Shown: piece by piece, positions 3,351 through 60,959 of the stretch
How the letters are laid out: every line of letters starts with the position of its first letter
Numbering within the stretch: position 1 is the stretch's first letter
Translations under genes and position numbers: made by a program
Source of the DNA: Eledone cirrhosa
Taxonomy: Eukaryota
DNA length: 64,000 nucleotides
Direction of reading: 5' to 3'
NCBI GenBank assembly: GCA_964016885.1
Contig: OZ024741.1
Coordinates: 238,142,001 to 238,206,000, forward strand
The notes under the pieces: generated by a model
What the model was told of the DNA's origin: nothing
Databases searched by the model: none
The model's input: only the letters and a program-made list of their open reading frames with translations

Positions 3351-3430
3351 CTACGTTGGCTGTAGATAGGTATCTTGTACTTGTTGTCCCTTTTGTATTG
3401 TGGCTGGAACTGGATTGTCATTGGTATATT
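3351..3430 (-). CDS. Protocadherin G1 last coding exon ((E)YTNDNPVPATIQKGQQVQDTYLQPT*)
   Basis: TTTTCTAG acceptor, phase 1 matches the upstream exon, ends TAG TAG; 80 nt in all 8 paralogs. Confidence 0.85.
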
Positions 3431-3589
3431 CTAGAAAAAATATAATATAGAAACAGAAATTATATTTCAATATAACAACTCTGTAAAGATATAAACATTG
3501 ATGTTATATTACACTAAATATAACATTAAATATTGTGTTACAGTAATAAAGAGAATTACATTAATATGTTATGTTTAGATAAAAGTTAC

Positions 3590-3737
3590 CTGGTTGTGCA
3601 GATATCTCTTCATATGGTTTAGTTTTGCCAATACTCTTGTAACCTTCTCTGCTTTTTTGTGATGTTAAGGTGTCACTGTTGTAGTTAGACATGCTGAGAC
3701 TGGTGTGACCTTCATGACTATGGATTGAATCACATCT
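3590..3737 (-). CDS. Protocadherin G1 148-nt cytoplasmic exon (RCDSIHSHEG...KPYEEISAQP)
   Basis: CCACAG acceptor, CAG|GTAACT donor, phase 0 in and phase 1 out; conserved in all paralogs. Confidence 0.85.
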
Positions 3738-3963
3738 CTGTGGATTATAAAAGTCAGTAGAGTGAATCACAATATTCAATAGAAAAAGGTTTATATTTAT
3801 TATATAAAATATTTCATGTACAACATAAAAGAGAAATTTTATAATAAATATTATTTATTAAATTCTACAAGTGGAGAGATGCTATACTGAAAAATCAGAG
3901 AACAGCAGATGTAAAATGATAATGGTCAGAACAATAACAGAAATATTTAAAAATAATATTTAC

Positions 3964-6366
3964 CTGTGGAACTGGTGGAAGTCTCCTTTGTGTTGTTGAG
4001 AATTTCCACTCATCTGGTAGCTGCTCCATCTCTGGATAAAACTGACTTTTAGATTTTATTGTCTGAAGATTTCTGTTAAATATCTCTTCTGCATTTCTAG
4101 TTATTGCAACAGGATTGTTAGTCTGATACAATAATTGTCTCATCTCAGTCTGAGACAGAAAGTTTGGATTATCTGCTGTCGTAGGTGAGTTATTGGTGTG
4201 ATTAATACATCTGAAAACACACAGTGTTATTGACACTACAATAGCCACAGATATTATTACAGCTGCTGCTACAATGATAATTACCCAAGTCATATTGAGG
4301 TTGTTACCAGACTGTAGGTGGACAGCATTCAACATTGGAGATGTATCATTACTAACAAACAATGTTAGTATGATAACAGTTGTTGCTGATTGAACTGGAG
4401 TACCACCATCTTTCACTATAAACTGTAGGTCATATGTTCCTGCATCATTTTGGTAAACTGTCCGAGAGAAAGATAAGACACCAGTGTGGGAGTTGACTGT
4501 AAACAGGTTTTTATCATTAGATCTCAGTATTCCATATGTGAGGAAAGCATTGTTTCCAGTGTCTTTGTCAGAGGCTTTCAGAATTGTGATGTCTTTCTTA
4601 CTGTGTGGATGGTAGTGGGCATCTAGATTGTAAGGGTCATTAATAGGAAAGGTAAAATAGGGAGCATTATCATTTTTATCTAGAATCTCAATAACAATAT
4701 TGGCAGTGTCATTCAGAGAAGGTGTTCCATTATCTTTGACTAAAACCTGGAATTTATAGATGTCTTTCACTTCCCGATCTATTGATTGTGATGTAGAAAT
4801 AAATCCATATTTTGTAAGTTGGAAAGGAATGTTATCATTGTTGTTATCATTGATGATAGAATATGTAAGCTGACCCCCATCATCAAGATCAGGGTCTGTA
4901 GCATTGATGAAGCCAATAGGGAAGTCAACTTTCTGGTTTTCATAGGTGAGGAATTGGAATGTATCTTTGGTAAAATGTGGCTGTACATCATTGACATCAG
5001 TTACTTTCACTGAGAAATATTTCTTAGTTTCTAGTTTAGGTGATCCCATGTCATGACATACAATAGATACTTTATAGTGGTCCTTTATTTCTCTATCAAG
5101 ATGGCCTTTAATAATCATCTTATATTCTTTAGAATCTATTTTGGTAAGTTTAAATTTATCATGTTCTAAATCACAGCTAACCTCACCATTAGGTCCAACA
5201 TCAGTGTCAGTGACCATAACATAAGCTATAAAACTACCAACTTTACTTGCTTCTGAAACTCCTGTGGAACTTTCTGTTAAAGGTGATACAAAATCTATAT
5301 TTATCACTGGAGCATTATTCTGGTCATTAATTATGTGAATTTGAACTGTGGTTACAGAACTAAGTTGAGGATTCCCTCCATCTCTGGCTTCAATAAATAA
5401 TTTATAAGATTGCATCTTACTAAAGTGAAAATTATCATGTAAAAATATCTCTCCAGTTTTCTTAATCAATACAAAATATTTCAGTGCATTTCGAGATGTT
5501 TTATGGTTGAAATGATAAGAAATCTTTCCATTGTGTCCAGAATCTAGATCTGTGGCTTTTAATGTAAGAATTGGTAAATGCCTTTGATGTGAATTATTTA
5601 TAGATATGTTGTAGACTTTCTGTGAAAATACAGGTGTGTTATCATTAACATCTGTCACAGCTATGTGTACCTTGAGGGTAGCTGTTTGGGGAGGGTTACC
5701 TCTATCTTTAGCTTCAAGTGTCAACATATATGAGTTTTTAACTTCCCTGTCTAATTTCTCTTCTAAAGTTAATTCGGGTATGAAAATGCCATCATGTCGC
5801 CTTGTGATGGAGAGAGAAAATGGTTCTCTCTTACTTTTTCTAATCATGTATGTAATTTGGGAATTCTTTATTGATATATCTTGATCAATGGCATTTGGAA
5901 GAGAGAATTTATCTCCTTTTCTAGCTACCTCAAAAAATTCAATTTTAACTTCATTCTTGGGAAATTCTGGTGGATGGTCATTGATGTCTTCTATAATTAT
6001 TTTTATCTTCAATATCTTCATAAATGTTTCTGCTTTCCTCACTGCTACTTTAACAATTCTGGAACATTCCTTGTTATATGTACACAGTAACTCAGCATCC
6101 AGTGTCTGTGTAGTGTATAGTTTTCCTGTGTTGGTGACATTAAATAAGTGAGAACCACTTGACACTGTCCTTTGTAGTTGTGTAAATGTAATGAGAGTGT
6201 GTTGATGTGTGAGTGAGTGTGTTAAGTTAGAATCAACAGCAATGTCTCCTATATAGGTGTGAGGACTGTCTTCTTCATTGACATGGTATGTAATGTCTAT
6301 AGACAGTACAAGGTTGTACAAGTACAGTAAATGTAGTAGACAGAGTAGACCAATATATGTTGTCAT
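3964..6366 (-). CDS. Protocadherin G1 large exon: signal peptide, 6 cadherin repeats, TM, proximal tail
   Basis: Cadherin motifs (DINDH, LDRE, DVNDNTPVF, ATDLD), EC1 C-X5-C loop LCTYNKEC, hydrophobic TM WVIIIVAAAVIISVAIVVSITL; donor CAG|GTAAAT at 3963; exon acceptor at 6404, 38 nt upstream of the ATG. Confidence 0.95.
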
Positions 6367-12478: not shown

Positions 12479-14915
12479 CTACGTTGGCTGTAGATAGGTA
12501 TCTTGTACTTGTTGTCCCTTTTGTATTGTGGCTGGAACTGGATTGTCATTGGTATATTCTGGAAAATATAAAATATAGAAACAGAAATTATATTTCAAAA
12601 TAACAACTCTGTAAATATATAAACATTGATGTTATATTACAATAGCTATAACATTATATATTGTCTAAAGAGAATTATATTTCTATGTTATGTTTAGATA
12701 AAAGTTACCTGGTTGTGCAGATATCTCTTCACATAAGTCTTGCCAATACTCTTGTGACCTTCTCTGGTTTTTTGTGATGTTAAGGTGTCACTGTTGTAGT
12801 TAGACATGCTGAGACTGGTGCGACCTTCATGACTATGGATTGAATCACATCTCTGTGGATTATGAAAGTCAGTAGAGTGAATCACAATATTCAACAGAAA
12901 AAGGTTTATATTTATTATATAAAATATTTCACATACAACAAAAGAAAGGATTTTTAAAATGAATATCATTTATTAAATGCTACAAGTGGAGAGATGCTGA
13001 TGAGAACGATGATGATGATCAGATTAACAACAGAAATATTTAAAAATAATATTTACCTGTGGAACTGGTGGAAGTCTCTTTTGTGTTGTTGAGAATTTCC
13101 ACTCATCTGGTAGCTGTTCCATCTCTGGATAAAACTGACTTTTAGATTGTAGTGTCTGAAGATTTCTGTTAAATATATCTTCTGCATTTCTCGTTATTGC
13201 AACAGGATTGTTGGTGTGATACAATAATTGTCTCATCTCAGTCGGAGACAGAAAGTTTGGATTATCTGCTGTTGTAGGTGAGTTATTGGTGTGATTAACA
13301 CTTCTGTAAACACACAGTGTTATTGACACTACAATAGCCACAGATATTATTACAGCTGCTGCTACAATGATAATTACCCAAGTCATATTGAGATTGGTAC
13401 CAGTCTGTAAGTGGACTGCAGTCAACATTGGAGATGTATCATTACTAACAAACAGTGTTAGTATGATCACAGTTGTTGCTGATTGAACTGGAGTACCACC
13501 ATCCTTCACTATAAACTGTAGGTCATATGTTCCTGCATCATTTTGGTAAACTGTCCAAGAGAAAGATAAGACACCAGTATGGGAGTTGACTGTAAACAGG
13601 TTTTTATCATTAGATCTCAGTATTCCGTATGTGAGGAAAGCATTGTTTCCAGTGTCTTTGTCAGAGGCTTTCAGAATTGTGATGTCTTTCTTATTGTGTG
13701 GATGGTAGTGGACATCTAGATTGTAAGGGTCATTAATAGGAAAGGTAAAATAGGGAGCATTATCATTTTTATCTAGAATCTCAATAAACTATAAAACTAT
13801 CTAGTTCACTGTCTTCTGAAACTGCTGTGGAACTTTCTGTTAAAGGAGATACAAAATCTATATTTATCACTGGAGCATTATTCTGGTTATCAATTGCATT
13901 AATTTGAACTGTGGTTACTGAACTGAGGGGTGGTTTTCCTTCATCGCTGTCTTCAATAAATAATTTATAGGACTGCATCTTACTAAAGTGAAAATTATCA
14001 TGTAAAAATATCTCTCAAGTTTTCTTATCTAATACAAAATATTTCTGGGCATTTCGAGATGTTTTATGGTTGAAATGGTAAGAAATCTTCCCATTGTGTC
14101 CAGAATCTTTTAAAGCAAGAATTGGTAAATGTCTTTGATGTGAATTATTTATAGACATGTTGTAGACTTTCTGTGAAAATACAGGTGTGTTATCATTGAA
14201 ATCTGTCACAGTTATGTATACCTTGAGGGTAGCTGTTTGGGGAGGGTTCCCTCCATCTTTTGCTTCAAGTGTCAACATATATGAGTCTCTTTCTTCCCTG
14301 TCTAATTTGTCTTGTAAAGTTAATTCAGGTATGAAGACTCCATCATGTCACCTTGTGACAGAAAGGGAAAACGGTTCTTTCTTACTTTTCTTAATCATGT
14401 ATGTAATTTGAGAATTCTTTATTGAAATGTCTTGATCAATGGCATTTGAAAGAAAGATTTTATCTTCTTCTTTTCCATCCTGTTCAGCAAATTCAATTTC
14501 AACTTTATTCTTGGGAAATTCTGGTGAATGGTCATTAATGTCTTCTATTAATATTTTTATCTTAAGAATTTTCATACAGGCTTTTCCTGTCCTCACTGCT
14601 ACTTTAACAATTCTGGAACATTCCTTGTTATATGTACACAGTGACTCAGCATCCAGTGTCCGTGTAGTGTATAGTTTTCTAGTGTTGGTGACATTGAATA
14701 AATGAGAACCACTTGACACTGTCCTTTGTAGTTGTGTAAATGTAATGAGAGTGTGTTGTTGATGTGTAAGAGAGTGTGTTAAGTTAGAATCAACAGCAAT
14801 GTCTCCTATATAGGTGAGGACTGCCTTCTTCGTTGACATGGTATGTAATGTCAGTAGACAGTACAAGAGTCATCAGTAAATGTAGTAGACAAAGTAGACC
14901 AATATATGCTGTCAT
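12479..14915 (-). pseudogene. Protocadherin G2 pseudogene (exons 14953-13057, 12852-12709, 12558-12479)
   Basis: 2-nt deletion near 14815, nonsense codons at 14348 and 14015, 12-nt deletion near 14108, ~530-bp deletion at ~13787 removing most of EC4 and EC5, 4-nt deletion in the 148-nt exon (now 144 nt). Confidence 0.92.
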
Positions 14916-21101: not shown

Positions 21102-21249
21102 CAGTTTGTGAAGATATCTCTTCATTTGGTTTAGTCTTGCCAATACTCTTGTAACCTTCTCTGCTTTTTTGTGATGTTAAGGTGTCACTGTTGTAGTTAG
21201 ACATGCTGAGACTGGTGCGACCTTCATGACTATGGATTGAATCACATCT
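21102..21249 (-). CDS. Protocadherin G3 148-nt exon
   Basis: CCATAG acceptor, CTG|GTAACT donor; PNEEI instead of PYEEI. Confidence 0.82.
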
Positions 21250-21989
21250 CTATGGATTATAAAAAAAAGCAGAGTGAATCATGATGTTAACTTGAATGAA
21301 TATTTATGATTATTATCTAAAATATTCCAGGTATAATACAAGAAAGAATTCCATTCATAAAGAATTATTAAAGGATGCTAGAATCACACCAATAGAAATA
21401 TTACACTTAAACAATTGTGGAGATAAAATTATGTAAACATTATATTCTTTCAATAAAGAAAAGATTTTGTTAAGAATGTCCCCATAAAAAGAGGCTGGTG
21501 ATACACCATAATACAAAAGACCTATTCAACAGTATAAACACTGTGACATTAGAGAAAATGTGGTGCAAGATTAGAGGCAACAGTGTTTGCATATCAAATA
21601 AAGACACTAAAGGGTTTGAGAGTATTTTTCAGCCTAACCAAGCATATGATAACCCCTCAAGTACTGGTGCCATGATAAAATGCATCCAATACCTAGCATA
21701 CAAATGATGCCAAATATGAAAGTTACAAACCGAGAGGTGATTGCTTCAACTTGTTTTGGACTATGATAACTCATCAAATCTCAGCCCAACAGGAAAGAGA
21801 ATAGGTTAAATTAAATATTTATATAAAAATATTCTGAAGATAAAATTAAAGATAAGATTTTTGTGAAATTCCTAAAATATAAAAAATATAATACAAAATA
21901 AAAAATATGATGAGAAGTTTTAAAATATCTATTAAAAATATAATAAAACTGTATTATTCAATACTAGAATTATTTCAAATAATATTTAC

Positions 21990-24389
21990 CTGTGGAACTG
22001 GTGGAAGTCTCCTTTGTGTTGTTGAGAATTTCCACTCATCTGGTAGCTGTTCCATCTCTGGATAAAACTGACTTTTAGATTTTATTGTCTGAAGATTTCT
22101 GTTAAATATCTCTTCTGCATTTCTAGTTATTGCAACAGGATTGTTGGTATGATACAGTAATTGTCTCATCTCAGTCTGAGACAGAAAGTTTGAATTATCT
22201 GCTGTTGTAGGTGAGTTATTGGTGTGATTTATACATCTGAAAACACACAGTGTTATTGACACTACAATAGCCACAGATATTATTACAGCTGCTGCTACAA
22301 TGATAATTACCCAAGTCATATTGAGGTCATTACCAGACTGTAAGTGGACAGCATTCAACATTGGAGATGTATCATTACTAACAAACAATGTTAGTATGAT
22401 AACAGTTGTTGCTGATTGAACTGGAGTACCACCATCTTTCACTATAAACTGTAGGTCATATGTTCCTGCATCATTTTGGTATACTGTCCGAGAGAAAGAT
22501 AAGACACCAGTGTGGGAGTTGACTGTAAACAGGTTTTTATCATTAGATCTCAGTATTCCATATGTGAGGAAAGCATTGTTTCCAGTGTCTTTGTCAGAGG
22601 CTTTCAGAATTGTGATGTCTTTCTTACTGTGTGGATGGTAGTGGACATCTAGATTGTAAGGGTCATTAATAGGGAAGGTAAAATAGGGAGCATTATCATT
22701 TTTATCTAGAATCTCAATAACAATATTGGCAGTGTCATTCAGAGAAGGTGTTCCATTATCTTTGACTAAAACCTGGAATTTATAGATGTCTTTCACTTCC
22801 CGATCTATTGATTGTGATGTAGAAATAAATCCATATTTTGTAAGTTGGAAAGGAATGTTATCATTGTTGTTATCATTGATGATAGAATATGTAAGTAGAC
22901 CTCCATCTTCAAGATCAGGGTCTGTAGCATTGATGAAGCCAATAGGGAAGTCAACTTTCTGGTTTTCATAGGTGAGGAATTGGAATGTATCTTTGGTAAA
23001 ATGTGGCTGTACATCATTGACATCAGTTACTTTCACTGAGAAATATTTCTTAGTTTCTAGTTGAGGTGATCCCATATCATGACATACAATAGATACTTTA
23101 AAGTGATCGTTTATTTCTCTATCAAGATGTCCCTTAACAATTATTTTATATTCTTTAGAATCTATTTTGGCAAGTTTAAATTTATCATGTTTTAAATTAC
23201 AGCTAACTGCACTATTAGGTCCAACATCAGTGTCAGTGACCATAACATAAGCTATAAAACTATCTAGTTCACTGTCTTCTGAAACTGCTGTGGAACTTTC
23301 TGTTAAAGGGGATACAAAATCTATATTTATCACTGGAGCATTATTTTGGTTATTAATAACATTAATTTGAACTGTGATTACTGAACTAAGGGGAGGTTTT
23401 CCTCCATCACGCACTTCAATAAATAATTTATAAGGTTGCATCTTACTAAGGTGAAAATTATCATGTAAAAATATCTCTCCAGTTTTCTTATTCAATACAA
23501 AATATTTCTGGACATTTCGAGATGTTTTATGGTTGAAATGATAAGAAATATTCCCATTGTGTCCAGAATCTAGATCTGTGGCTTTTAAAGTAAGAATTGG
23601 TAAATGTTTTTGATGTGAATTATTTATAGATATGTTGTAGACTTTCTGTGAAAATACAGGTGTATTATCATTAACATCTGTCACAGCTATGTGTACTTTG
23701 AGGGTAGCTGTTTGGGGAGGGTTCCCTCCATCTTTAGCTTCAAGTGTTAACATATATGAATCTTTTACTTCTCTGTCTAATTTCTCTTCCAAAATTAGTT
23801 CAGGTATATAGACACCATCATGTCGCTTCTTGACAGAGAGATAAAATGGTTCTCTCTTATATTTCTTAATAATATATGTAATTTGAGAATTCTTTATTGA
23901 AATATCTTGATCAATGGCATTTGGAAGGGAGATTTTACTTCCTTTCAGGTCTTTTTCAGAAAATTCTATTTCAAATTCATTCTCTGGAAATTCTGGTGAA
24001 TGGTCATTGAGGTCTTCAATTAATATTTTTATCTTAAGAATTTTCATGAAACTTTTTCCTTTCCTCACTGCTACTTTAACAATTCTGGAACATTCCTTGT
24101 TATATGTACACAGTGACTCAGCATCCAGTGTCTGTGTAGTGTATAGTTTTCCTGTGTTGGTGACATTGAATAAGTGAGAACCACTTGACACTGTCCTTTG
24201 TAGTTGTGTAAATGTAATGAGAGTGTGTTGTTGATGTGTAAGAGAGTGTGTTAAGTTAGAATCAACAGCAATGTCTCCTATATAGGTGTGAGGACTGCCT
24301 TCTTCATTGACATGGTATGTAATGTCTATAGACAATACAAGGGTCATCAATAAATGTAGTAGACAGAGTAGAGCAATATATGTTGTCAT
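21990..24389 (-). CDS. Protocadherin G3 large exon (800 codons)
   Basis: Intact signal-6EC-TM ORF; CAG|GTAAAT donor; acceptor at 24427. Confidence 0.95.
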
Positions 24390-24477
24390 GTCTGGAATTC
24401 TTCATCGCACTTCAACAGTAATAATTTCTACAAAAACACAACAGAAATAATCTAAATGAAATAAACAGAATAAGAAA

Positions 24478-30004: not shown

Positions 30005-30152
30005 CTGGTTGTGAAGGTATTTCTTCATATGGTTTAGTCTTGCCAATACTCTTGTAACCTTCTCTGCTTTTTTGTGATGTTAAGGTGTCACTGTTGTAGT
30101 TAGACATGCTGAGACTGGTGCGACCTTCATGACTATGGATTGAATCACATCT
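30005..30152 (-). CDS. Protocadherin G4 148-nt exon
   Basis: Canonical AG/GT; ...KPYEEIPSQP. Confidence 0.85.
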
Positions 30153-30618
30153 CTGTGGATTATGAAAGAAAGCAAAGTGATAACAACCTCATTATAAATA
30201 AATTAAATAAGTAAAAGTCCTAGAAGTGGGAGTAAACTTCTAATATCTTGACCTTTGTAGAGTCTTGTCTTTTGTGAAGCTTATTATAGGAGTGTTTTAC
30301 AAGGTGGTCATTAAATCAATGGAGATTAACATGTGATATAGAATAATTCCAAAAGAAATATGATTATATATTTTCTTTATTGGTGTAAATAAATAGAAAG
30401 CCATTTATGGGTTAAAAATATAAATCTGTAAATATTAAATCTAGTTAATTATATGAAATGTAAAATTCCGTAAAAATGATTTTCTTCCAGTAAAGAAAGG
30501 TTTTATTGTTAATTAGACCCTATAATGTATGACATATTAGAATGTCAATTAAATTGGAAATATTAAAATATGTTTCTAAGTTTAATCAATAGTAGAAGTG
30601 TTGTAAACAAATATTTAC

Positions 30619-33018
30619 CTGTGGAACTGGTGGAAGTCTCCTTTGTGTTGTTGAGAATTTCCACTCATCTGGTAGCTGTTCCATCTCTGGATAAAACTGA
30701 CTTTTAGATTTTATTGTCTGAAGATTTCTAGCAAATATATCTTCTGCATTTCTGGTTATTGCAACAGGATTGTTGGTCTGATACAGTAATTGTCTCATCT
30801 CAGTCTGAGATAGAAAGTTTGGATTATCTGCTGTTGTAGGTGAGTTATTGGTGTGATTAATACATCTGAAAACACACAGTGTTATTGACACTACAATAGC
30901 CACAGATATTATTACAGCTGCTGCTACAATGATAATTACCCAAGTCATATTGAGGTTGTTACCAGACTGTAAGTGGACAGCATTCAACATTGGAGATGTA
31001 TCATTACTAACAAACAGTGTTAGTATGATAACAGTTGTTGCTGATTGAACTGGACTACCACCATCTTTCACTATAAACTGTAGGTCATATGTTCCTGCAT
31101 CATTTTGGTAAACTGTCCGAGAGAAAGATAAGACACCAGTGTGGGAGTTGACTGTAAACAGGTTTTTATCATTAGATCTCAGTATTCCATATGTGAGGAA
31201 AGCATTGTTTCCAGTGTCTTTGTCAGAAGCTTTCAGAATTGTGATGTCTTTCTTACTGTGTGGATGGTAGTGGACATCTAGATTGTAAGGGTCATTAATA
31301 GGAAAGGTAAAATAGGGAGCATTATCATTTTTATCTAGAATCTCAATAACAATATTGGCAGTGTCATTCAGAGAAGGTGTTCCATTATCTTTGACTAAAA
31401 CCTGGAATTTATAGATGTCTTTTACTTCCCGATCTATTGACTGTGATGTAGAAATAAATCCATATTTTGTAAGTTGGAAAGGAATGTTATCATTGTTGTT
31501 ATCATTGATGATAGAATATGTAAGTAGACCTCCATCTTCAAGATCAGGGTCTGTAGCATTGATGAAGCCAATAGGGAAGTCAACTTTCTGGTTTTCATAA
31601 GTGAGGAATTGGAATGTATCTTTGGTAAAATGTGGCTGTACATCATTGACATCAGTTACTTTCACTGAGAAATATTTCTTAGTTTCTAGTTGAGGTGATC
31701 CCATGTCATGACATACAATAGATACTTTATAGTGATCCTTTATTTCTCTATCAAGATGTCCCTTAACAATTAAATTATATTCTTTAGAATCTATTTTGGT
31801 AAGTTTAAATTTATCATGTTTTAAATTACAGCGAACCTCACCATTAGGTCCAACATCAGTGTCAGTGACCATAACATAAGCTATAAAACTATCTAGTTCA
31901 CTGTCTTCTGAAACTCCTGTGGAACTTTCTGTCAAAGGTGATACAAAATCTATATTTATTACTGGAGCATTATTTTGATTATTAATTACATTAATTTGAA
32001 CTGCAGTTACCGAACTCAAAGGAGGTTTTCCTTCATCTCGTGCTTCAATAAATAACTTATAAGATTGCATCTTACTAAAGTTAAAATTATCATGTAAAAA
32101 TATCTCTCCAGTTTTCTTATCTAATACAAAATATTTCTGAGCATTTCGAGATGTTTTATGGTTGAAATGATAAGAAATCTTCCCATTGTGTCCAGAATCT
32201 AGATCTGTGGCTTTTAAAGTAAGAATTGGTAAATGTCTTTGATGTGAATTATTTATAGATATGTTGTAGACTTTCTGTGAAAATACAGGTGTGTTATCAT
32301 TAACATCTGTCACATCTATGTGTACCTCGAGTGTAGCTCTTTGGGGAGAGTTCGCTCCATCTTTAGCTTCAAGTTTTAACATATATGAGTCTTTTATTTC
32401 TCTGTCCAATTTCTCTTCCAGAATTAGTTCAGGTATATAAACACCATCATGTCGCTTTTTGACGGAGAGAGAAAATGGTTCTCTTTCATTTGTTTTAATC
32501 ATGTATGAAATATGAGAATTTCTTAATGAAATATCTTGATCAATGGCATTTGGAAGAGAAATCTTTGCTCCTTTTGTGTCTCTCTCAGTAAATTCAATTT
32601 CAACTTCATTCTTGGGAAACTCTGGTGAATGATCATTGATGTCGTCTATCAATATTTTTACTTTAAGAATTTTCATGAAACTTTTTCCTTTCCTCACTGC
32701 TACTTTAACAATTCTGGAACATTCCTTGTTATATGTACACAGAGACTCAGCATCCAGTGTCTGTGTAGTGTATAGTTTTCCTGTGTTGGTGACATTAAAT
32801 AAGTGAGAACCACTTGACACTGTCCTTTGTAGTTGTGTAAATGTAATGTGAGTGTGTTGTTGATGTGTGAGAGAGTGTGTTAAGTTAGAATCAACAGCAA
32901 TGTCTCCTATATAGGTGTGAGGACTGTCCTCTTCATTGACATGGTATGTAATGTCTATAGACAGTACAAGGGTCATCAGTAAATGTAGTAGACAGAGTAG
33001 ACCAATATATGTTGTCAT
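30619..33018 (-). CDS. Protocadherin G4 large exon (800 codons)
   Basis: Intact signal-6EC-TM ORF; donor CAG|GTAAAT; acceptor at 33056. Confidence 0.95.
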
Positions 33019-33419
33019 GTCTGGAATTCTTCATCACACTTTAGCAGCAGAAATTTCTACAAAAACACAACAGAAATAATCTAAATGAAGTAAATAGAAT
33101 AAGTAATAATAATAACAATAATCTAAATTGAGGAAATGTTATTTTTATCGCCACATACATTCCAGTGGACAGAACTGAATAACTTTAAATATGTTATCTC
33201 TTCCGATATTGTAATGGTTACAGCTGTGTTTTACTTGGTTTCGTATGAGGGTTGAATAGATAACAGGAGTGATGTGGAGTGCTATAGTATAATCTGAAAA
33301 ATCTTGGACATTCTCTGGTAGCTCAATGCTGTACTATTGAAACATGCCAAAATCACATTGATCCCCAATTAACACTTTAAGATGTGTATGTAAACATTAT
33401 GTACCGAAGTATGTACCAA

Positions 33420-38593: not shown

Positions 38594-38741
38594 CTGGTTG
38601 TGCAGATATCTCTTCATATGGTTTAGTCTTGCCAATACTCTTGTAACCTTCTCTGCTTTTTTGTGATGTTAAGGTGTCACTGTTGTAGTTAGACATGCTG
38701 AGACTGGTGCGACCTTCATGACTATGGATTGAATCACATCT
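38594..38741 (-). CDS. Protocadherin G5 148-nt exon
   Basis: Canonical AG/GT, conserved peptide. Confidence 0.85.
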
Positions 38742-39372: not shown

Positions 39373-39532
39373 TTCTGTAATAATTCTGTAAAAATTATTT
39401 TCTTCTAGTAAAGAAAAGTTTTTTGTTAATAAGATTCTATAATGTGTGACATATTAAAATGTCAATAAAACATGTTTCTAAAATATTATCAAAGGTTGAT
39501 CAATACTAGAATTGTTGAAAACAAATATTTAC

Positions 39533-41932
39533 CTGAGGAACTGGTGGAAGTCTCCTTTGTGTTGTTGAGAATTTCCACTCATCTGGTAACTGTTCCATCT
39601 CTGGATAAAACTGACTTTTAGATTTTATTGTCTGAAGATTTCTGTTAAATATTTCTTCTGCATTTCTAGTTATTGCAACAGGATTGTTAGTCTGATACAG
39701 TAATTGTCTCATCTCAGTCTGAGACAGAAAGTTTGAATTATCTGCTGTTGTAGGTGAGTTATTGGTGTGATTAATACATCTGAAAACACACAGTGTTATT
39801 GACACTACAATAGCCACAGATATTATTACAGCTGCTGCTACAATGATAATTACCCAAGTCATATTGAGGTTGGTACCAGACTGTAAGTGGACAGCATTCA
39901 ACATTGGAGATGTATCATTACTAACAAACAATGTTAGTATGATAACAGTTGTTGCTGATTGAACTGGACTACCACCATCTTTCACTATAAACTGTAGGTC
40001 ATATGTTCCTGCATCATTTTGGTAAACTGTCCGAGAGAAAGATAAGACACCAGTGTGGGAGTTGACTGTAAACAGGTTTTTATCATTAGATCTCAGTATT
40101 CCATATGTGAGGAAAGCATTGTTTCCAGTGTCTTTGTCAGAGGCTTTCAGAATTGTGATGTCTTTCTTACTGTGTGGATGGTAGTGGACATCTAGATTGT
40201 AAGGGTCATTAATAGGAAAGGTAAAATAGGGAGCATTATCATTTTTATCTAGAATCTCAATAACAATATTGGCAGTGTCATTCAGAGAAGGTGTTCCATT
40301 ATCTTTGACTAAAACCTGGAATTTATAGATGTCTTTCACTTCCCGATCTATTGATTGTGATGTAGAAATAAATCCATATTTTGTAAGTTGGAAAGGAATG
40401 TTATCATTGTTGTTATCATTGATGATAGAATATGTAAGTTGACCTCCATCTCCAAGATCAGGGTCTGTAGCATTGATGAAGCCAATAGGGAAGTCAACTT
40501 TCTGGTTTTCATAGGTGAGGAATTGGAATGTATCTTTGGTAAAATGTGGCTGTACATCATTAACATCAGTTACTTTGACTGAGAAATATTTCTTAGTTTC
40601 TAGTTGAGGTGATCCCATGTCATGACATATAATAGATACTTTATAGTGATCCTTTATTTCTCTATCAAGATGTCCCTTAACAATTAAATTATATTCTTTA
40701 GAATCTATTTTGGCAAGTTTAAATTTATCATGTTCTAAATCACAGCTAACCGCACCATTAGGTCCAACATCAGTGTCAGTGACCATAACATAAGCTATAA
40801 AACTATCTAGTTCACTGTCTTCTGAAACTGCCGTGGAACTTTCTGATAAAGGAGATACAAAATCTATATTTATCACTGGAGCATTATTCTGGTTATTAAT
40901 TATGTGAATTCGAACTGTGGTAACAGACTTTTTGGGTGGAATGCCTCCATCACGTGCTTCAATAAATAATTTATAAGATTGCATCTTACTAGAGTGAAAA
41001 TTATCATGTAAAAATATCTCTCCAGATTTCTTTTCTAATACAAAATATTTCTGGACATTTCGAGATGTTTTATGGTTGAAATGATAGAAAATCTTTCCAT
41101 TGTTTCCAGAATCTAGGTCTGTGGCTTTTACTGTAAGAATTGGTAAATGTCTTTGATGTGAATTATTTATAGATATGTTGTAGACCTTCTGTGAAAATAC
41201 AGGTGTGTTATCATTAACATCTGTCACAGCTATGTGTACCTTGAGTGTAGCTGTTTGGGGAGGGTTCCCTCCATCTTTAGCTTCAAGTGTCAACATATAT
41301 GAATCTCTTACTTCTCTGTCTAATTCATGTTCTAGAATAAGTTCGGGCATGAAGATACCATCAGGTTGTTTTGTGCCATAGAGAGAAAATGGCTCACTCT
41401 TACTTTTCTTAATCAGGTATGCAATCTGAGAATTTCTTAATGAAATATCTTGATCAATGGCATTTGGAAGAGAGATTTTACTTCCTTTAAAGTCTCTTTC
41501 TGAAAATTCAATTTCAACTGCATTCTCTGGAAATTCTGGTGAATGATCATTGATGTCTTCTATTAATATTTTTATCTTAAGAATTTTCATAAAGGTTTTT
41601 CCCTTCCTCACTGCTACTTTTACAATTCTGGAACATTCCTTGTTATATGTACACAATAACTCAGCATCTAGTGTCTGTGTAGTGTATAGTTTTCCTGTGT
41701 TGGTGACATTGAATAAGTGAGAACCACTTGACACTGTCCTTTGTAGTTGTGTAAATGTTATGAGAGTGTGTTGTTGATGTGTAAGAGAGTGTGTTAAGTT
41801 AGAATCAACAGCAATGTCTCCTATATAGGTGTGAGGACTGTCTTCTTCATTGACATGGTATGTAATGTCTATAGACAGTACAATGTTTATCAATAAATGT
41901 AGTAGACAGAGTAGACCAATATATGTTGTCAT
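39533..41932 (-). CDS. Protocadherin G5 large exon (800 codons)
   Basis: Intact ORF; donor CAG|GTAAAT; acceptor at 41970. Confidence 0.95.
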
Positions 41933-43737
41933 GTCTGGAATTCTTCATCGCACTGCAGCTGTAGAAATTTCTACAAAAACACAACAAAAATCATCTAAAT
42001 GAAATAAATAGAATAAGAAATAATAATAATAATCTAAATTAAGGAAATGTTATATTTATCTCTATATACACTCCATTGGGCACAACTGAACAACATTACG
42101 TATGTTATCTCTTCTGATTTTGTAATAGCTACAAGTCTCTCACTTGGTTTCATATGAGGGCTGAATAAATAACAGGAGTTGGGTGTGGAAGAGCAATCGT
42201 ATATAGTCCAAAACATCCTGGATAACCCATAGTAGCTCAATGCTGTACTTCTGGAAGGTCCCAAAATGACATATATCCTCCGTTGAAATTTAATGAAGAA
42301 AATGTTCTCCTATATAAGCTGTATGTAAAATGTTATATTGCAATACAAACAGATGAAGCAAGCACTGAAAGCCTTGAGCATGCATGTTTCAGTGGATGTT
42401 TAATGTTAGCATGCATGAAAAATAGAGTATAAGTGAACTGAGAGAAGACTAAGATGGTATGGATATGTGATGCATATGGAAGATGAAAAATGTAGTATAA
42501 AGTCTACAGAAATTTCAGTGGATAGGAGTTGTAGAAAAAGTGACCTAGAAAGACATAGGATTAATTTGTGATGACCAATCTTAGAAAGCGGAATCACACA
42601 CCAGATTACACAGAAGCTGGCATCATGCAGTAGTGGAGAAGACTTGTCTGCCAGCATAAAATGTCACTTGATCATTCCCACCTTAACTGTATACTAGCCA
42701 GGATGATAACACCATTCCTCACCCTTTCATCACCTTGTGAAATCCCATCACACGATTTACACCCATAACATACTTTCTCTATCAGTTCTCCACATTACAC
42801 CTGGAACCCAAACATTGAACATGTCACTCCTACATGATACTTTTTTTGATTAATTCTAAACAAATCTATAGAACATTCATCTATTGTTATCAGAGTTAAT
42901 ATATTTTAATAACTCATGACAATATCATCAGTTTATATCTCACATTAAACATAGTAAGATATCCAGAGTAAACTTTATTTATCAACGTTTTAATAATAAA
43001 TATTATTTACATATAAATATAAAATAGATATTTAACATGATATATAGGGGTTTTAATGATCTCATAGTTTTAATTAAAGCTAAAAAAGATTAAGATTTAA
43101 GTATTCAATTATTATGGCAGCACATATATTATTCAGTCTCATTGTCTATCAATACATAAATTTAAAATGGTTAAGTAAACATAAAGACTTAATTTGAAAT
43201 ATGTTACACCAATATTGTATATAAAATATATAGAAGCAATATATATATAGCCTAATGTCTGTTGTATAATGTCTAGGTTGATTTTGCTATTACTATAAGT
43301 AGTTTTTCTAGAGGTATTTGTGCTACTACAAGTGCTGTTGTTGTTGTTGTTGTTGTTAATGGTGGCAGTGATGGCAAGATCTCTCTATCCTCCACACTCA
43401 AAATCCCTTTATATATATAACATGGCAGACATATTCAGCAGTTATCTTAGTCATTGTATTTAATGGTGGAAGGGAAGGCTACATCTATTTTTTACTCAGT
43501 TCCAGCAGGGAAAATTGGCATTGCATGATGATGATGATGATAATGATACATATATAGAAAGAACTAGATAGACAGACAGCTTAATAAATAAATAGATAGA
43601 TAGACAGACAAACAGATAAATATACAATAGGGTAAATATTTTAGATATAATCCTTTGCAAGTGATTCCCTATGAACACATGATATAAATTTTATATGGAT
43701 ATGAAAAAATAGAAAAAAGTGAGAGAGAGAGATTTAC

Positions 43738-45002: not shown

Positions 45003-45150
45003 CTGGTTGTGCAGATATCTCTTCATATGGTTTAGTCTTGCCAATACTCTTGTAACCTTCTCTGCTTTTTTGTGATGTTAAGGTGTCACTGTTGTAGTTA
45101 GACATGCTGAGACTGGTGCGACCTTCGTGACTATGGATTGAATCACATCT
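45003..45150 (-). CDS. Protocadherin G6 148-nt exon
   Basis: CCACAG acceptor, CAG|GTAATT donor. Confidence 0.85.
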
Positions 45151-45740
45151 CTGTGGAATATAAAAGAAAGCAAAGTGAAACAATGTTAACTTGAATAAAT
45201 ATTTATATTTATTATCAAAAATATTGCAGGTACAACAAGAAATAAATCCTTTTATAAGTTGGAGATCAACGCAGATCTCAAACTCAAATAATCTAATAAC
45301 AACCTCATTATAAATAAATTAAATAAGTAAAAGTCCTAGAAGTGGGAGCAAACTTCTAATATCTTGACCTTTGTAGAGGCTTGTCTTTTGTGAAGCTTAT
45401 TATAGGAGTGTTTTACAAGGTGGTCATTAAATCAATGGAGATTAACATGTGATATAGAATAATTCCAAAAGCAATATGATTATATATTTTCTTTATTGGT
45501 GTAAATAAATAGAAAGCCGTTTATGGGTTAAATCAAAAATATTAATCTGTAAATATAAAAATCTAGTTAATTATATGAAATCTAAAATTCCGTAAAAATG
45601 ATTTTCTTCCAGTAAAGAAAGGTTTTATTGTTAATTAGACCCTATAATGTATGACATATTAGGATGTTAATTAAATTGGAAATATTAAAATATGTTTCTA
45701 AGTTTAATCAATACTAGAAGTGTTGTAAACAAATATTTAC

Positions 45741-48137
45741 CTGAGGAACTGGTGGAAGTCTCCTTTGTGTTGTTGAGAATTTCCACTCATCTGGTAGCTG
45801 TTCCATCTCTGGATAAAACTGACTTTTAGATTTTATTGTCTGAAGATTTCTAGCAAATATATCTTCTGCATTTCTGGTTATTGCAACAGGATTGTTAGTC
45901 TGATACAGTAATTGTCTCATCTCAGTCTGAGATAGAAAGTTTGGATTATCTGTTGTTGTAGGTGAGTTATTGGTGTGATTAATACATCTGAAAACACACA
46001 GTGTTATTGACACTACAATAGCCACAGATATTATTACAGCTGCTGCTACAATGATAATTACCCAAGTCATATTGAGGTTGTTACCAGACTGTAAGTGGAC
46101 AGCATTCAACATTGGAGATGTATCATTACTAACAAACAGTGTTAGTATGATCACAGTTGTTGCTGATTGAACTGGAGTACCACCATCTTTCACTATAAAC
46201 TGTAGGTCATATGTTCCTGCATCATTTTGGTAAACTGTCCGAGAGAAAGATAAGACACCAGTATGGGAGTTGACTGTAAACAGGTTTTTATCATTAGATC
46301 TCAGTATTCCATATGTGAGGAAAGCATTGTTTCCAGTGTCTTTGTCAGAGGCTTTCAGAATTGTGATGTCTTTCTTACTGTGTGGATGGTAGTGGACATC
46401 TAGATTGTAAGGGTCATTAATAGGAAAGGTTAAATAGGGAGCATTATCATTTTTATCTAGAATCTCAATAACAATATTGGCAGTGTCATTCAGAGAAGGT
46501 GTTCCATTATCTTTGACTAAAACCTGGAATTTATAGATGTCTTTCACTTCCCGATCTATTGATTGTGATGTAGAAATAAATCCATATTTTGTAAGTTGGA
46601 AAGGAATGTTATCATTGTTGTTATTGATGATAGAATATGTAAGTTGACCTCCATCTCCAAGATCAGGGTCTGTAGCATTGATGAAGCCAATAGGGAAGTC
46701 AACTTTCTGGTTTTCATAGGTGAGGAATTGGAATGTATCTTTGGTAAAATGTGGCTGTACATCATTGACATCAGTTACTTTCACTGAGAAATATTTCTTA
46801 GTTTCTAGTTGAGGTGATCCCATGTCATGACATACAATAGATACTTTATAGTGGTCCTTTATTTCTCTATCAAGATGTCCCTTAACAATCATTTTGTATT
46901 CTTTAGAATCTATTTTGGTAAGTTTAAATTTATCATGTTTTAAATCACAGCTAACCTCACCATTAGGTCCGACATCAGTGTCCGTGACCATAACATAAGC
47001 TATAAAACTATCTAGTTCACTGTCTTCTGAAACTGCTGTGGAACTTTCTGTTAAAGGTGATACAAAATCTATATTTATCACTGGAGCATTATTTTGGTTA
47101 TTAATTACATTAATTTGAACTGCAGTTACTGAACTAAGTGAAGGTTTTCCTTCATCTCGTGCTTCAATAAATAACTTATAAGATTGCATTCTACTGAAGT
47201 GAAAATTATCATGTAAAAATATCTCTCCAGTTTTCTTATTCAATACAAAATATTTCTGGGCATTTCGAGATGTTTTATGGTTGAAATGATAAGAAATCTT
47301 TCCATTGTTTCCAGAATCTAGATCTGTGGCTTTTATTGTAAGAATTGGTAAATGTCTTTGATGTGAATTATTTATAGATATGTTGTAGACTTTCTGTGAA
47401 AATACAGGTGTGTTATCATTAACATCTGTCACAGCTATGTGTACCTTGAGGGTAGCTGTTTGGGGAGGATCACCTCCATCTTTAGCTTCAAGTGTCAACA
47501 TATATGAGTCTTTTATTTCCCTGTCTAATTTGTTTTCTAAAGTTAATTCAGGTATGAAGGCCCCATCATGTCGCCTTGTGACAGAGAGAGAAAATGGTTC
47601 TTTTTTACCTTCATTAATCATATATGTAATTTGAGAATTCTTTATTGAAATATCTTGATCAATGGCATTTGGAAGAGAGAATTTATCTCCTTTTCTAGCT
47701 ATCTCAAAAAATTCAATTTCAACTTCATTCCTTGGAAATTCTGGTGAATGGTCATTGATGTCTTCTATTATTATTTTTAACTTCAGAACCTTCATAAAGG
47801 CTTTTCCTTTCCTCACTGCTACTTTAACAATTCTGGAACATTCCTTGTTATATGTACACAGTGATTCAGCATCCAGTGTCTGTGTAGTGTATAGTTTTCC
47901 TGTGTTGGTGACATTAAATAAGTGAGAACCACTTGACACTGTCCTTTGTAGTTGTGTAAATGTAATGAGAGTGTGTTGTTGATGTGTAAGAGAGTGTGTT
48001 AAGTTAGAATCAACAGCAATGTCTCCTATATAGGTATGAGGACTGTCCTCTTCATTGACATGATATGTAATGTCTATGGACAGTACAAGGGTCATCAGTA
48101 AATGTAGTAGACAGAGTAGACCAATATATGTTGTCAT
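45741..48137 (-). CDS. Protocadherin G6 large exon (799 codons)
   Basis: Intact ORF; donor CAG|GTAAAT; acceptor at 48175. Confidence 0.95.
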
Positions 48138-48639
48138 GTCTGGAATTCTTCATCACACTTTAGTAGTAGAAATTTCTACAAAAGATAACAGAAATATTTA
48201 AGGGTAAAGTAAAATGAAAGATAAACATAAAAATATTAATAATTGTGTAAAAGTTGTTTCTAATCTAAACATTTCTTCAGTTGATCCAACTGAACAACTT
48301 AAAATATGTCATCTCAACATGAGCGATGGTTAAATGGATAAGAAGAAAAAAAGAACATGCTATAGTGTAAGACAAAACAATATGGACATTCCTGTGTAGC
48401 TTCAATGCTGGAGTGAGCAATATTGTTGGAAGTTGCTGAAATATTACTGATATCCAGTTGATAACTGATGAAGATGTCCCAGGCATGTATGGCTATTATT
48501 TATTATTCTCTCTACCTCAGTTTTAAATTACTATTATTAAAATGATTAACATTATCTCAAGTATTAATTATAGTTAAAAAAGTTTGATATTTATTCTCCC
48601 TCCCACAATCTTTAATAATAATTTTTAATATTGTGTAAA

Positions 48640-51817: not shown

Positions 51818-51965
51818 CTGATTGTGCAGATATCTCTTCATATGGTTTACCCTTGCCAATACTTTTGTAACCTTCTCTGCTTTTTTGTGATGTTAAGGTG
51901 TCACTGTTGTAGTTAGACATGCTGAGACTGGTGCGACCTTCATGACTATGGATTGAATCACATCT
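51818..51965 (-). CDS. Protocadherin G7 148-nt exon
   Basis: GACAG acceptor, CAG|GTAACT donor; ...KGKPYEEISAQS. Confidence 0.82.
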
Positions 51966-52700
51966 CTGTCAATTATAAAAGATATCAGAGTGAAACATCA
52001 TGTTAGCTTGAATAAATCTTTATGTTTATTATGTAAAATAAAAGAATTTAAAGAATGGAAGAATCATACCAACAGAGATATTATAAGAAAATATTCTCTC
52101 TGTTAATGTAAATAATTTTGAGATCTAATTGTGTAAAAGATGAAATTTACTCTTAAGAAAATCCAAAAATCTAAATACAGCAAAATGTAAATAAAAATAT
52201 AAATAAAAGTATAAATTTAAAACAACATTTTAAGAATTTCACAAAAATAATTGTGTTTCTTTTTATCTAATGATACCATGGATCCTCACTTGAAATGCTT
52301 CCTACAAAAAGACAACATACTGGAAAAGTTTTTTTTGAAAGACCAGTAATAACCCATGCATGAAAGTCAACTAACTTAACACCAAGATTGAGGTTTAAAG
52401 AAAAAGCAAAGGACAATACAGCTGAGTACCAGTGACATTTAAGTTGAAGTCAAAATGCAGAGGGATGAAAGTATCACTTCCAACACTGTAACAATTCCGC
52501 TAATCCATAGCACTGGACTAATATTTTATACATTGTCACCGAAAGGATGATAGAAAGGTTGACCTTAGAAGGACTGAATACAAAGTGCAGAGAGCTGGAA
52601 CAAATAGAGTAAGGCATTCAATAAGATATGCTATGACTTAATCAATGGGTTATCAAACATATATTATTCAATACTAGAATTTGTGTAAACAAATATTTAC

Positions 52701-55097: not shown

Positions 55098-57230
55098 GTC
55101 TGGAATTCTTCATCATACTTTAGCAGTAGAAATTTCTACAAAAGACAATAGAAATATTCAAAATCTAAATCTCATGCAATATTAATACCATTCCATATCC
55201 ACCATAAGATGTATGAATTATAAAAGTTTCACAGTGTGTACGTAACTCTGTTAAAATATATAAAATAATTAATTCTTGTGACAAAGTAAAATGTAGTTTA
55301 ACCTTTGAACAATAAAATATCAATATAGTGTCATTTAATAATTTAGTAACACATCTATGGTAAGGAAATAAATAACCACTAGTCTTACCATCAGAAGGTT
55401 AAAAGTTGGTTTTCATATCAGCATTGAAATTTCTAAAGTGTCTATTATTAGAGGGGTAAAGCAGCAACCAGTCCAGCTTAAGGGCCAAACTGCAGAAATT
55501 GTTGACATAGCTGAGCACTGCCCTTGCTAAAGATGGCAACTAAAAAACTGATGTGAAAAAGAAACTTCACAAAGCTGAAGCTGTCGTTCAACACCTAATG
55601 CCTGTGTGATATAACTCTTTAATCAGCCAAGGCACAAAACTTTGCCTGTATAAGTGAATGATTGTGACAATGGCACCGTATGCATGTGAGACATTAAAAA
55701 AATGTAGTCACCACCATATGTTGGTAGAAGATGCTTGGTCATGACCTACTTACGTCCACAAAGAGACCAGTGTGGGTCTTTTGTGAATAGAAGCCAGATG
55801 GGATTGTATATAGAAGGCAAGGGAGACTCACAAAGACTTGATTGAAGTCTATAGAGGAAGACCTGGCAGACATGGGCCATGATTTGAAGCATGACAAGGC
55901 TCGCAATGGGGGCAAAATGAACTAAAGAAGAAAAAATAATTATTTGCATGTATGTCTCTCTTCACTTCATGATGACACAACTTGGGCAGCTGGTGCTATT
56001 GATTTATGTACTGCAGCTCAAAGATCCGATGTGTGATAACCAGGAACATACAAAAAAGTCATGGTTGGTGTCAGGAAGGGCATCTAGGCCAAAATGTCAT
56101 ATCCTGTTCATGTCAGTATCAAAAAGCAGATGTAAAAATGACGATGAAGATGATATTAAAATAGAATATAGAAGTAGTGTGGTTAGACATCAGAGTAATG
56201 GGCCTCATAAATGAGATATCATAAGACTGTGATATACTGGATGGCAGACACACAGCCTATCGAAACATGCACAAATGGATGTTAAAACATTGAAAATAAT
56301 AATTTGTAACAAACTTGAGGGAAGGGGTTAGTCAGTTACATCAACCTCAATACTTCACAGGTACTTTACTTTATCTACCCTAGAAGGATGAAAGGCAAAA
56401 TTGATTTTGGTGTGATCAGAACATAGATGATAATGAACATAATGATAATGAATTAATAATATGTGAATGGTGCTATTGATGTGGCTATATGATACATCAT
56501 CATTGTTTAATGTCTATTTTCCATATGAATTACCATTAAGCTGCATCAGTAAACATCAACCAGAATAGACAACTATCATAAAAGATCCTCACAGCAATAA
56601 TTAAACTGTAATGGAACTCTCTCTATATTTGTCTTTAATATTTCACTTTGTTTCACTTTTCATGGGGAAGGTAATGAAAGTCACAGATCCACACTGAGGA
56701 TAAGTTTAACCCTGACATTGTATGAAAGCAATCACTGATAACACAGATTGAGAAGGAAGACCCAAAGAGTGGTAACCAGTGGGGGAAAAGATACACTATT
56801 GCAGTATCTAAATCAAATGTCACCAACAAAAGAATATAAACTGCATTTCTAACTATATTTTATGTCACACATTGCCTTTCTTCATCTAAAATGAAAATGT
56901 TCAAGATTTAAGCAATCTTTTTCTTTTAGATTAACAATAAGAAATAAACTTTTTTGTGATATTGATGAAACATATATATGAAGTATATCAGCAATTACAA
57001 TGCGGAAGAATCATTTTAGACATAAAACACACACACACATATATATATTTCTAAAACAGGTTATAGTACATTATTACCATTATTACAGTATTGAAACAAT
57101 TCATTCAGTCTGAAATTATATATTGTATATTTCCTGACATCATATTAAAGAATCTTCCATTTTTAAATGACTAGCAAGGTAAACATGAACATGATGATGA
57201 GACATACACACACACATACACACATATACA

Positions 57231-60811: not shown

Positions 60812-60959
60812 CTGGTTGTGCAGATATCTCTTCATATGGTTTAGTCTTGCCAATACTTTTGTAACCTTCTCTGCTTTTTTGTGATGTTAAGGTGTCACTG
60901 TTGTAGTTAGACATGCTGAGACTGGTGCGACCTTCATGACTATGGATTGAATCACACCT
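60812..60959 (-). CDS. Protocadherin G8 148-nt exon
   Basis: CCACAG acceptor, CAG|GTAACT donor. Confidence 0.85.

Follow-up and report, generated by a model that had tools for sequence, protein, structure and literature searches.

Octopod protocadherin tails share a tyrosine motif that one clade pairs with an upstream proline motif: a possible docking site for Src-family kinases

The 64,000-nucleotide stretch of the Eledone cirrhosa genome analyzed here (C2:238142001-238206000; genome size 3.0 Gb), referred to below as the window, contains an array of protocadherin genes that follow one another head to tail on the minus strand; seven of their large exons are open over 808-827 codons, and an eighth is a remnant of 254 codons. 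The database proteins nearest to the array were octopod protocadherins of Octopus sinensis, O. vulgaris, O. bimaculoides and Argonauta hians. An initial annotation of the window proposed that the cytoplasmic tails of these proteins carry a paired docking site for Src-family kinases, formed by the proline motif RRLPPVP as an SH3 ligand and the downstream tyrosine motif YEEI as an SH2 ligand. New here, as judged from the sequences of octopod relatives, is that octopod protocadherins carry the tyrosine motif family-wide and that its pairing with the proline motif is clade-specific and dispensable.

Gene 1 starts with an ATG at 6366-6364 on the minus strand, on which all window features described below also lie. 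Its large first exon (3964..6366), identified as an open reading frame with its translation, covers the signal peptide, the cadherin repeats and the transmembrane helix and continues into the cytoplasmic tail for ~95 residues, and Pfam matched the product to Cadherin at 5e-69. The exon ends in ...FSTTQRRLPPVPQ (TTQRRLPPVPQ) followed by GT, with RRLPPVP at 3967..3987 and the Q codon at 3964-3966. Exon 2 (3590..3737) comprises 49 codons plus one base and runs RCDSIHSHEGH...KTKPYEEISAQP; its translation, RCDSIHSHEGH...GKTKPYEEISAQP, reads in full RCDSIHSHEGHTSLSMSNYNSDTLTSQKSREGYKSIGKTKPYEEISAQP. It contains YEEI (KPYEEI) at 3603..3614, which is the family-wide conserved Y-E-[E/T]-[I/L]-P site described below. 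Counted from the last Pro of RRLPPVP, the Tyr of YEEI is residue 43, in agreement with the spacing given in the initial annotation. The coding part of exon 3 (3351..3430) encodes (E)YTNDNPVPATIQKGQQVQDTYLQPT, ends with the stop codon TAG at 3351-3353 and includes the short motifs YTN (3420-3428) and YLQP (3357-3368).

Both introns of gene 1, intron 1 (3738..3963) and intron 2 (3431..3589), have GT..AG borders. An assembled RNA contig (run X23, record 7; 497 nt, with 1-4 differing letters in each piece) connects 3964 with 3737 and 3590 with 3430, and the latter joint was also seen in contigs of the runs X1, X5 and X9, so that intron 1 is spliced out in the X23 contig and intron 2 in those of all four runs. 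Evidence of this kind concerns the joints and is silent on expression level and rare variants.

The class I SH3 consensus is [RK]xxPxxP, with RxLPPxP as the Src type, and pYEEI is the optimal ligand of Src-family SH2 domains. RRLPPVP matches both forms of the former, and YEEI equals the latter. To assess how widely these motifs occur, we collected 206 relatives in three database searches, 200 of which have a clear transmembrane segment. Removal of duplicate tails and of tails shorter than 120 residues left 162 unique tails, which single linkage at 60% identity grouped into 61 clusters. The initial annotation had named loss of the motifs from distant paralogs as an outcome that would speak against docking. 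The tyrosine motif is retained there: Y-[ED]-[EDT]-[ILMV] was present in 42 of the 61 cluster representatives as against an average of 1.47 and at most 6 in shuffled tails, and exact YEEI, the commonest form, in 19 of 61 compared with 0.09 expected, where the shuffles ignore relatedness, so that these figures are counts and not probabilities, and where truncated isoforms and gene models inflate the class lacking the motif.

Among the 42 representatives with the motif, which were selected for the Tyr, position +1 was Glu in all 42, position +2 was Glu (32) or Thr (10), position +3 was Leu (21) or Ile (19), position +4 was Pro in 30, and position +5 was Gly (19) or Ala (11). The consensus upstream of the Tyr was G-D-T-G-H/Q, and the commonest octopod form was Q-Y-E-E-I-P. 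In alignment A1, 36 short-tail rows of our own choosing, the motif columns (Y 33, E 31, E 33 and I 35 of 36) were the best-kept columns of the tail besides a juxtamembrane Cys (35) and Glu (34). The site is homologous throughout, lying 5-7 residues past a shared G-x-G-W-S-E block in short-tail and long-tail proteins alike, and the motif is present in both major octopod clades. It is retained between tails that are otherwise less than 50% identical and between Octopus and Argonauta. The taxa in which it was seen are Octopus species, Argonauta and the E. cirrhosa genome. In the latter, a second array (C2:239.28-239.67 Mb) holds at least 44 exon-2 copies, and all 30 of those fetched encode QYEEIPAM; from a third array, around 240.0 Mb (C2:239.92-240.23 Mb), one exon-2 copy was read, and it encodes HYEEIPG. 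The further C2 arrays (L029, L042-L071) have their own tail types, QYEEIPAMSG and HYEEIPG, and the protein encoded by one of their exon-2 copies is 100% identical to a piece of O. sinensis P0107.

An octopod protocadherin outside the arrays, on another chromosome (P0338), has TVQELQ at the tyrosine site. In O. vulgaris P0116 (QCEELPG) and P0322 (LCEKLPG) a Cys stands in place of the Tyr, and RNA editing of the Tyr codon was considered as an explanation. For P0322 it was rejected, because all four members of its cluster have Cys at the site, genome-derived ones included, which makes it a genomic loss and not editing; P0116 had no close genomic partner in the protein set used. A search for decapod relatives with cuttlefish P0190 returned mostly giant cadherins, and 8 of the 10 protocadherin-sized rows checked were octopod. 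Most decapod-like matches were reading frames of exon 1 only. In three Logan transcripts (P0279, P0355 and P0363), a different YEEI spans the junction of exons 1 and 2 (...VIYE then EIEG...).

For RRLPPVP, retention at the same position in distant paralogs did not hold. In a FastTree ectodomain tree (67 rows, three decapod-like rows as outgroup, local support values), the octopod sequences formed a short-tail clade of 31 rows and a long-tail clade of 32 rows, each with 96% support. Gene 1 fell into a seven-row clade with 100% support, together with P0016 and P0042, which like gene 1 have both motifs, and P0034, P0125, P0027 and P0047, which have the proline motif only. The clade includes Octopus and Argonauta members that keep the proline motif at the end of exon 1. 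On this tree, RRLPPVP at the end of exon 1 is derived and belongs to the seven-row clade. The simplest reading of the tree is that the tyrosine motif is ancestral, that RRLPPVP arose once upon an older R-x-L-P block, and that the Tyr was later lost in P0047 and in the P0034/P0125/P0027 subclade. Thus, the order of SH3-type motif and then SH2-type motif described in the initial annotation is real in the window clade, but it is specific to that clade, and a sister subclade has lost the Tyr.

Proline motifs of the same type occur elsewhere in the family. [RK]xLPxxP was found in 26 of the 61 representatives, compared with 0.42 expected from shuffles, while shuffling of the 61 tails leaves about 6 with the looser [RK]xxPxxP. 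The stricter motif occupies three tail positions, namely the exon-1 end in the window clade, a position near the C-terminus, such as RQLPSTP in the P0090 cluster (17 members), and the very C-terminus, where most long-tail proteins have KPLPA[VIL]PK. In the long-tail clade (P0120, P0124-P0199) the latter closes a strongly conserved C-terminal block, W-N-L-P-x-x-N-S-F-T-S-Y-x-K-P-L-P-A-[VIL]-P-K, that follows D-V-I-D-L-K-S and is an undescribed tail module ending in a class I-type proline motif. Both motif types are found in 60 of the 162 unique tails; a further 56 have just the tyrosine motif, 27 have just the proline motif, and 19 lack both. In clusters P0002 and P0042 the motif starts are 48-56 residues apart.

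Within the window, a six-frame scan found RRLPPVP seven times and KRLPPVP once, in the pseudogene, so that all eight large exons carry [KR]RLPPVP, as the initial annotation had stated in giving RRLPPVPQ as the exon end of the intact genes and KRLPPVP as the variant in the pseudogene. YEEI occurred six times and was confined to copies of exon 2. The earlier statement that the next exon encodes YEEI thus applies to six of the eight copies; it had missed an intact gene (large exon 21975-24401) whose exon 2 encodes NEEI (KPNEEIS; 21115..21126) through a Tyr-to-Asn replacement, and the exon 2 of the pseudogene is frameshifted. The NEEI gene represents a natural Tyr-less variant and a possible internal control. 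The pseudogene remnant (12709..13788) has its KRLPPVP at 13060-13080 and the frameshifted exon 2 at 12709-12852. Its large exon is open over 13024-13788 only, similarity to extracellular cadherin (EC) repeats 1-3 extends to 14852, and its exon 3 (12480-12558) matches the gene 1 exon at 100% identity. The gene called G4 (large exon 30586-33030, RRLPPVP at 30622-30642) has YEEI at 30018..30029 within KPYEEIPSQP, bearing out the YEEIP reported for it. In the remaining genes, YEEI lies at 38607..38618 (large exon 39506-41944, RRLPPVP 39536-39556), 45016..45027 (45714-48149, RRLPPVP 45744-45764), 51831..51842 (52674-55109, RRLPPVP 52704-52724) and 60825..60836 (61554-63998, running past the window end, RRLPPVP 61629-61649).

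Over the whole array (C2:238.04-238.30 Mb), YEEI was found in 26 of 28 exon-2 copies, NEEI in one, and one copy was broken. Loci L001-L027 show two tail types, YEEISAQP and YEEIPSQP, each making up about half of the 27 readable exon-2 copies. The 28 copies are tandem duplicates with 90-100% identity. Since the copies are recent or homogenised near-identical duplicates, repetition of the motifs in the window is not independent evidence, and their above-chance status rests on the other octopod clades and not on the window copies. Substitution counts in exon 2 within the array were too few, and too much dominated by the YEEISA and YEEIPS types and the pseudogene, and were not used.

Comparison of gene 1 with the seven other window copies gave identities of 83-93% for EC1-3, 97-99% for EC6 plus the transmembrane segment, 95-98% for the cytoplasmic part of exon 1, 93-99% for exon 2 and 97-100% for exon 3. 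Intron 2 was 86-94% identical, and intron 1 could be aligned over at least 60% of its length in one of the seven copies. The paralogs therefore have a variable head and a near-constant tail, as seen for example in positions 5300-6300 versus 3351-4800 of gene 1. The tail thus behaves like a constant region without shared exons, maintained by selection or gene conversion.

A Pfam scan of four proteins, the gene 1 product and three relatives, matched cadherin-repeat families only in all four, and no tail domain of the vertebrate families (clustered constant domain, or conserved motifs CM1-CM3 of delta-protocadherins) was found in them. This is in line with the initial annotation, which saw no delta-protocadherin CM motifs, and with the accessible text of Styfhals (2019), which reports no vertebrate tail motifs, CM included, in O. 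vulgaris and describes the intracellular partners as unexplored. On reading the window tail, we found no WIRS or PP1 (RRVTF) motif of the kinds present in vertebrate protocadherin tails. AlphaFold2 modeling of the ortholog P0011 with the 36-row alignment gave confident cadherin repeats and a transmembrane helix, while tail residues 721-874 had a predicted local distance difference test score (pLDDT) of 25-36 and no predicted secondary structure. The model, made for P0011 and not for the window protein, fits a disordered tail with short linear motifs as its functional units. RRLPPVP lies ~90 residues past the transmembrane helix, in the segment that is predicted to be disordered in P0011.

The initial annotation had described YTN and YLQP of the last exon as weak matches. 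The outcome for them is mixed. Family-wide, YxN was not enriched (11 of 61 representatives versus 23.9 expected); EY[ST]N and TYL[QE]P are kept between the window subclade and its sister subclade. In cuttlefish PCDHD2 (P0200, Acanthosepion pharaonis), the 500-residue tail contains four D-Y-[LV]-E-P repeats followed by S-x-S-G-S..T-Y-S-Q-P, and RTPPRVP near its end. This repeat tract looks like a multi-tyrosine substrate region and, as a sequence likeness, recalls the terminal TYLQP of the window tail. In P0013 (Argonauta hians, 953 aa) the exon-2 peptide is present twice with apparent intron read-through in between, which is probably an annotation artefact fusing the tail exons of two adjacent genes.

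We found no mention of YEEI in protocadherins in the literature searched, which did not include Albertin (2015) and Wang and Ragsdale (2017), either of which might contain one. A search for cephalopod protocadherins together with SH3 and Src returned no relevant title, and a search for a cephalopod phosphotyrosine data set found none. The accessible part of Table S2 of Styfhals (2019), which covers octopus motifs of Albertin (2015), gives EC1, EC5, EC6, transmembrane and PP1 patterns and no SH2 or SH3 motif.

We tentatively propose that RRLPPVP and YEEI of the tail jointly dock a Src-family kinase, a possibility to which we would give somewhat less than an even chance. The SH2 domain of the kinase would bind YEEI after phosphorylation of the Tyr, and the SH3 domain would bind RRLPPVP upstream of it. 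The tyrosine motif would then provide the expanded family with a shared signalling output and functionally correspond to a constant region, and the window clade would later have added an SH3 ligand 43 residues upstream, creating a two-point site that docks and activates Src. Src is favored because its specificities for pYEEI and RxLPPxP match the two motifs. A Src-family kinase, which is expected in any animal genome, would be the best single candidate reader of Y-E-[E/T]-[I/L]-P. The steps that we infer are the phosphorylation of the Tyr, the role of SH2 and SH3 domains as readers, and the choice of a Src-family kinase over other SH2/SH3 proteins; as a hypothesis at the level of motifs, the docking site is well-founded, and the reading given in the initial annotation is supported in part.

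Several observations weigh against this proposal. YEEI fits the pattern of YxxPhi sorting signals as well as that of pYEEI, and KPYEEI is not a good context for a Src kinase substrate. The Octopus and Argonauta orthologs of the window clade have YDEI and not YEEI. At the homologous site, the P0279 cluster, which is probably decapod, has HIDEMPD without a Tyr, and cuttlefish P0200 lacks the tyrosine motif. A sister subclade (P0025-P0041, P0043, P0125) keeps R[RK]LPPxP and has no Tyr at the site (GWSEGDITHQ), and P0047 is alike. Because of this subclade and of the intact window gene with NEEI, which lacks the Tyr, the pair is not obligatory. The order of proline motif and then tyrosine motif is found in the window clade only, the proline motif lying 35-133 residues past the Tyr elsewhere, and 24 of the 61 clusters have the tyrosine motif and lack [RK]xLPxxP altogether. 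In all short-tail rows outside the seven-row clade, the tyrosine motif is present and no proline motif stands at the exon-1 end, where W-K-T-S-T..R-[ST]-L-P is found. Because the distant paralogs keep only R-x-L-P there, RRLPPVP may be an elaboration of this older motif with another partner.

A Pfam search of the genome for SH2 domains gave exon fragments only, and Src-family SH2 was not resolved from SHP2 among them: the half-SH2 exon at C9:12118048-12118227 matches the C-SH2 of SHP2 (4e-12), Frk (1e-11) and Src (4e-10) about equally. Other SH2 exons are, in our assumed typing, Csk-like (four in tandem), Abl-like and SHP2-like. Four SH2 exons lie within 80 kb on both strands at C6:17.10-17.18 Mb (L030, L031, L032 and L041); they look Csk-like, as we take them to be, and their clustering suggests a local duplication of a Csk-type gene.

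The tyrosine motif might be a phosphotyrosine site for a different SH2 protein, the proline motifs serving the SH3 domains of adaptors, and we regard this as unlikely. Candidate readers are a Syk/Shark-type kinase acting on YE[ET][IL] as on half of an immunoreceptor tyrosine-based activation motif (ITAM), Fes/Fer, Csk, Shc, PLC-gamma, and the adaptors Nck/Dock, Crk and Grb2/Drk. The form seen across the family, Y-E-[E/T]-[I/L]-P-[G/A], is broader than strict pYEEI (Leu in 21 versus Ile in 19, and Thr in 10 of 42) and overlaps the preferences of Syk, Fes, Shc and PLC-gamma, and the YDEI of the orthologs is near the Nck preference pYDE[PV]. The joint occurrence of both motifs in 60 of 162 tails, in either order, would suit multi-domain adaptors, and the presumed Csk-like, Abl-like and SHP2-like exons offer such SH2 domains in the genome. 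Yet exact YEEI is the commonest form of the motif (19 of 61 clusters), RxLPPxP is the class I optimum of Src, Fyn, Yes and p85 and not the class II form of Grb2, Crk and Nck, and the tri-acidic stretch that precedes the Tyr in hemITAMs is absent. A reader without an SH2 domain, which we find just as unlikely, is AP-2 mu or another adaptor complex: YEEI would be an unphosphorylated YxxPhi signal controlling endocytosis or dendritic/axonal sorting, phosphorylation would at most turn it off, and the proline motif would be unrelated. Here the best-kept positions are indeed the Tyr and the bulky hydrophobic +3 (Y 42, I/L 40 of 42), the tail around the site is predicted to be disordered, the distance from the site to the C-terminus is only 2-30 residues in many paralogs, and the 24 clusters with a tyrosine motif and no proline motif are readily accommodated. 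The accessible text of a 2020 review (PMC7339444) also states that endosomal trafficking of vertebrate protocadherins depends on their intracellular domains. Against sorting stand the remaining positions, with Glu at +1 in 42 of 42, only Glu or Thr at +2, and Pro at +4 in 30 of 42. A YxxPhi signal needs only Y and Phi, and mu2 prefers a basic or polar and not an acidic residue at +2. Because +1, +2 and +4 are constrained in a way that such a signal does not need, an SH2 domain is favored over AP-2 as the reader.

Finally, the motifs could lack a specific reader altogether, a young array homogenised by gene conversion having arrived at a chance likeness to SH3 and SH2 ligands. The 90-100% identity of the 28 array copies, the ease with which short motifs arise (as in the shuffles with [RK]xxPxxP) and the loss of the Tyr in one intact copy and in the sister subclade are compatible with this. 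It is nevertheless highly improbable in view of a tyrosine motif that is kept between tails less than 50% identical and between Octopus and Argonauta, that occurs in 42 of 61 clusters where shuffles, which ignore relatedness, predict 1.47, that provides the most conserved columns of the distal tail, and that belongs to tail exons more alike than the introns between them.

The conserved tyrosine motif would offer a first testable handle on intraneuronal signalling by the very large cephalopod protocadherin families, and it also raises the question of whether vertebrates and cephalopods independently coupled neuronal self-recognition families to tyrosine-kinase signalling. A broader version of the Src-docking proposal, which we put forward as doubtful, is that octopod protocadherins, while having no shared constant exons, share a near-optimal Src-type phosphotyrosine site, Y-E-E/T-I/L-P, kept in each duplicated gene since before their two major clades split, and that different clades acquired class I SH3 ligands independently, in this array at the end of exon 1 and elsewhere at the C-terminus. 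Homophilic contact between neurons would then be read out by the recruitment and opening of a Src-family kinase, in convergence with the kinase-linked constant domain of vertebrates.

Close functional models for the proposed docking are FAK, in which a proline motif precedes pYAEI (Tyr397), and p130Cas, in which one precedes pYDYV; both are two-point ligands that bind and open Src. The window tail resembles them in its class I-type proline motif, the 43-residue spacing, a tyrosine motif with a hydrophobic residue at +3 and the predicted disorder. It differs in having no sequence homology to either and in its carrier, a transmembrane adhesion receptor and not a cytosolic scaffold. Moreover, the octopod tyrosine motif long predates the proline motif at the end of exon 1, and the order of the two is reversed in other octopod clades. 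Peptide libraries and the hamster polyomavirus middle-T phosphopeptide, which has Pro at +4, served to define the pYEEI ligand itself. Y-E-E-I is identical in the window tail, and the octopod Q-Y-E-E-I-P shares the Pro at +4, but half of the octopod clusters have Leu at +3, a quarter have Thr at +2, and the orthologs of the window clade have Asp at +1. Like the YxxPhi signals read by AP-2 mu2, the octopod site belongs to a type I membrane protein and combines a Tyr with a bulky hydrophobic +3 residue in a cytosolic tail, here one predicted to be disordered; it departs from them in the strong constraint on +1, +2 and +4. Drosophila Dscam recruits the SH2-SH3 adaptor Dock (Nck) via PxxP and Tyr motifs in its tail and is likewise a self-recognition receptor family with both motif types in the tail. 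Dscam belongs to the immunoglobulin superfamily and is diversified by splicing, whereas the octopod family is diversified by gene duplication, and the motif sequences differ.

The vertebrate clustered protocadherins are a further system for comparison. Vertebrate Pcdh-alpha (CNR) binds Fyn, according to the accessible text of Styfhals (2019), which cites Kohmura (1998), and the constant domains of the clustered alpha and gamma proteins bind and inhibit FAK and Pyk2, with WAVE as a further tail partner, according to that of the 2020 review (PMC7339444). Since Fyn, SH3 and PXXP are absent from the main text of this review, the vertebrate link to the Src family is itself thin, and convergence of the octopod tails with Pcdh-alpha and Fyn is an analogy only. 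Cephalopods do not use shared final exons, as stated in the accessible part of Albertin (2022), and each gene of the array indeed has its own exons 2 and 3, unlike the vertebrate clusters with their shared constant exons. What both systems have in common is a large tandem family of neuronal adhesion receptors whose ectodomains vary while the tails stay near-constant; in vertebrates the tail is linked to non-receptor tyrosine kinases, and by the analogy proposed here it may be so in octopods.

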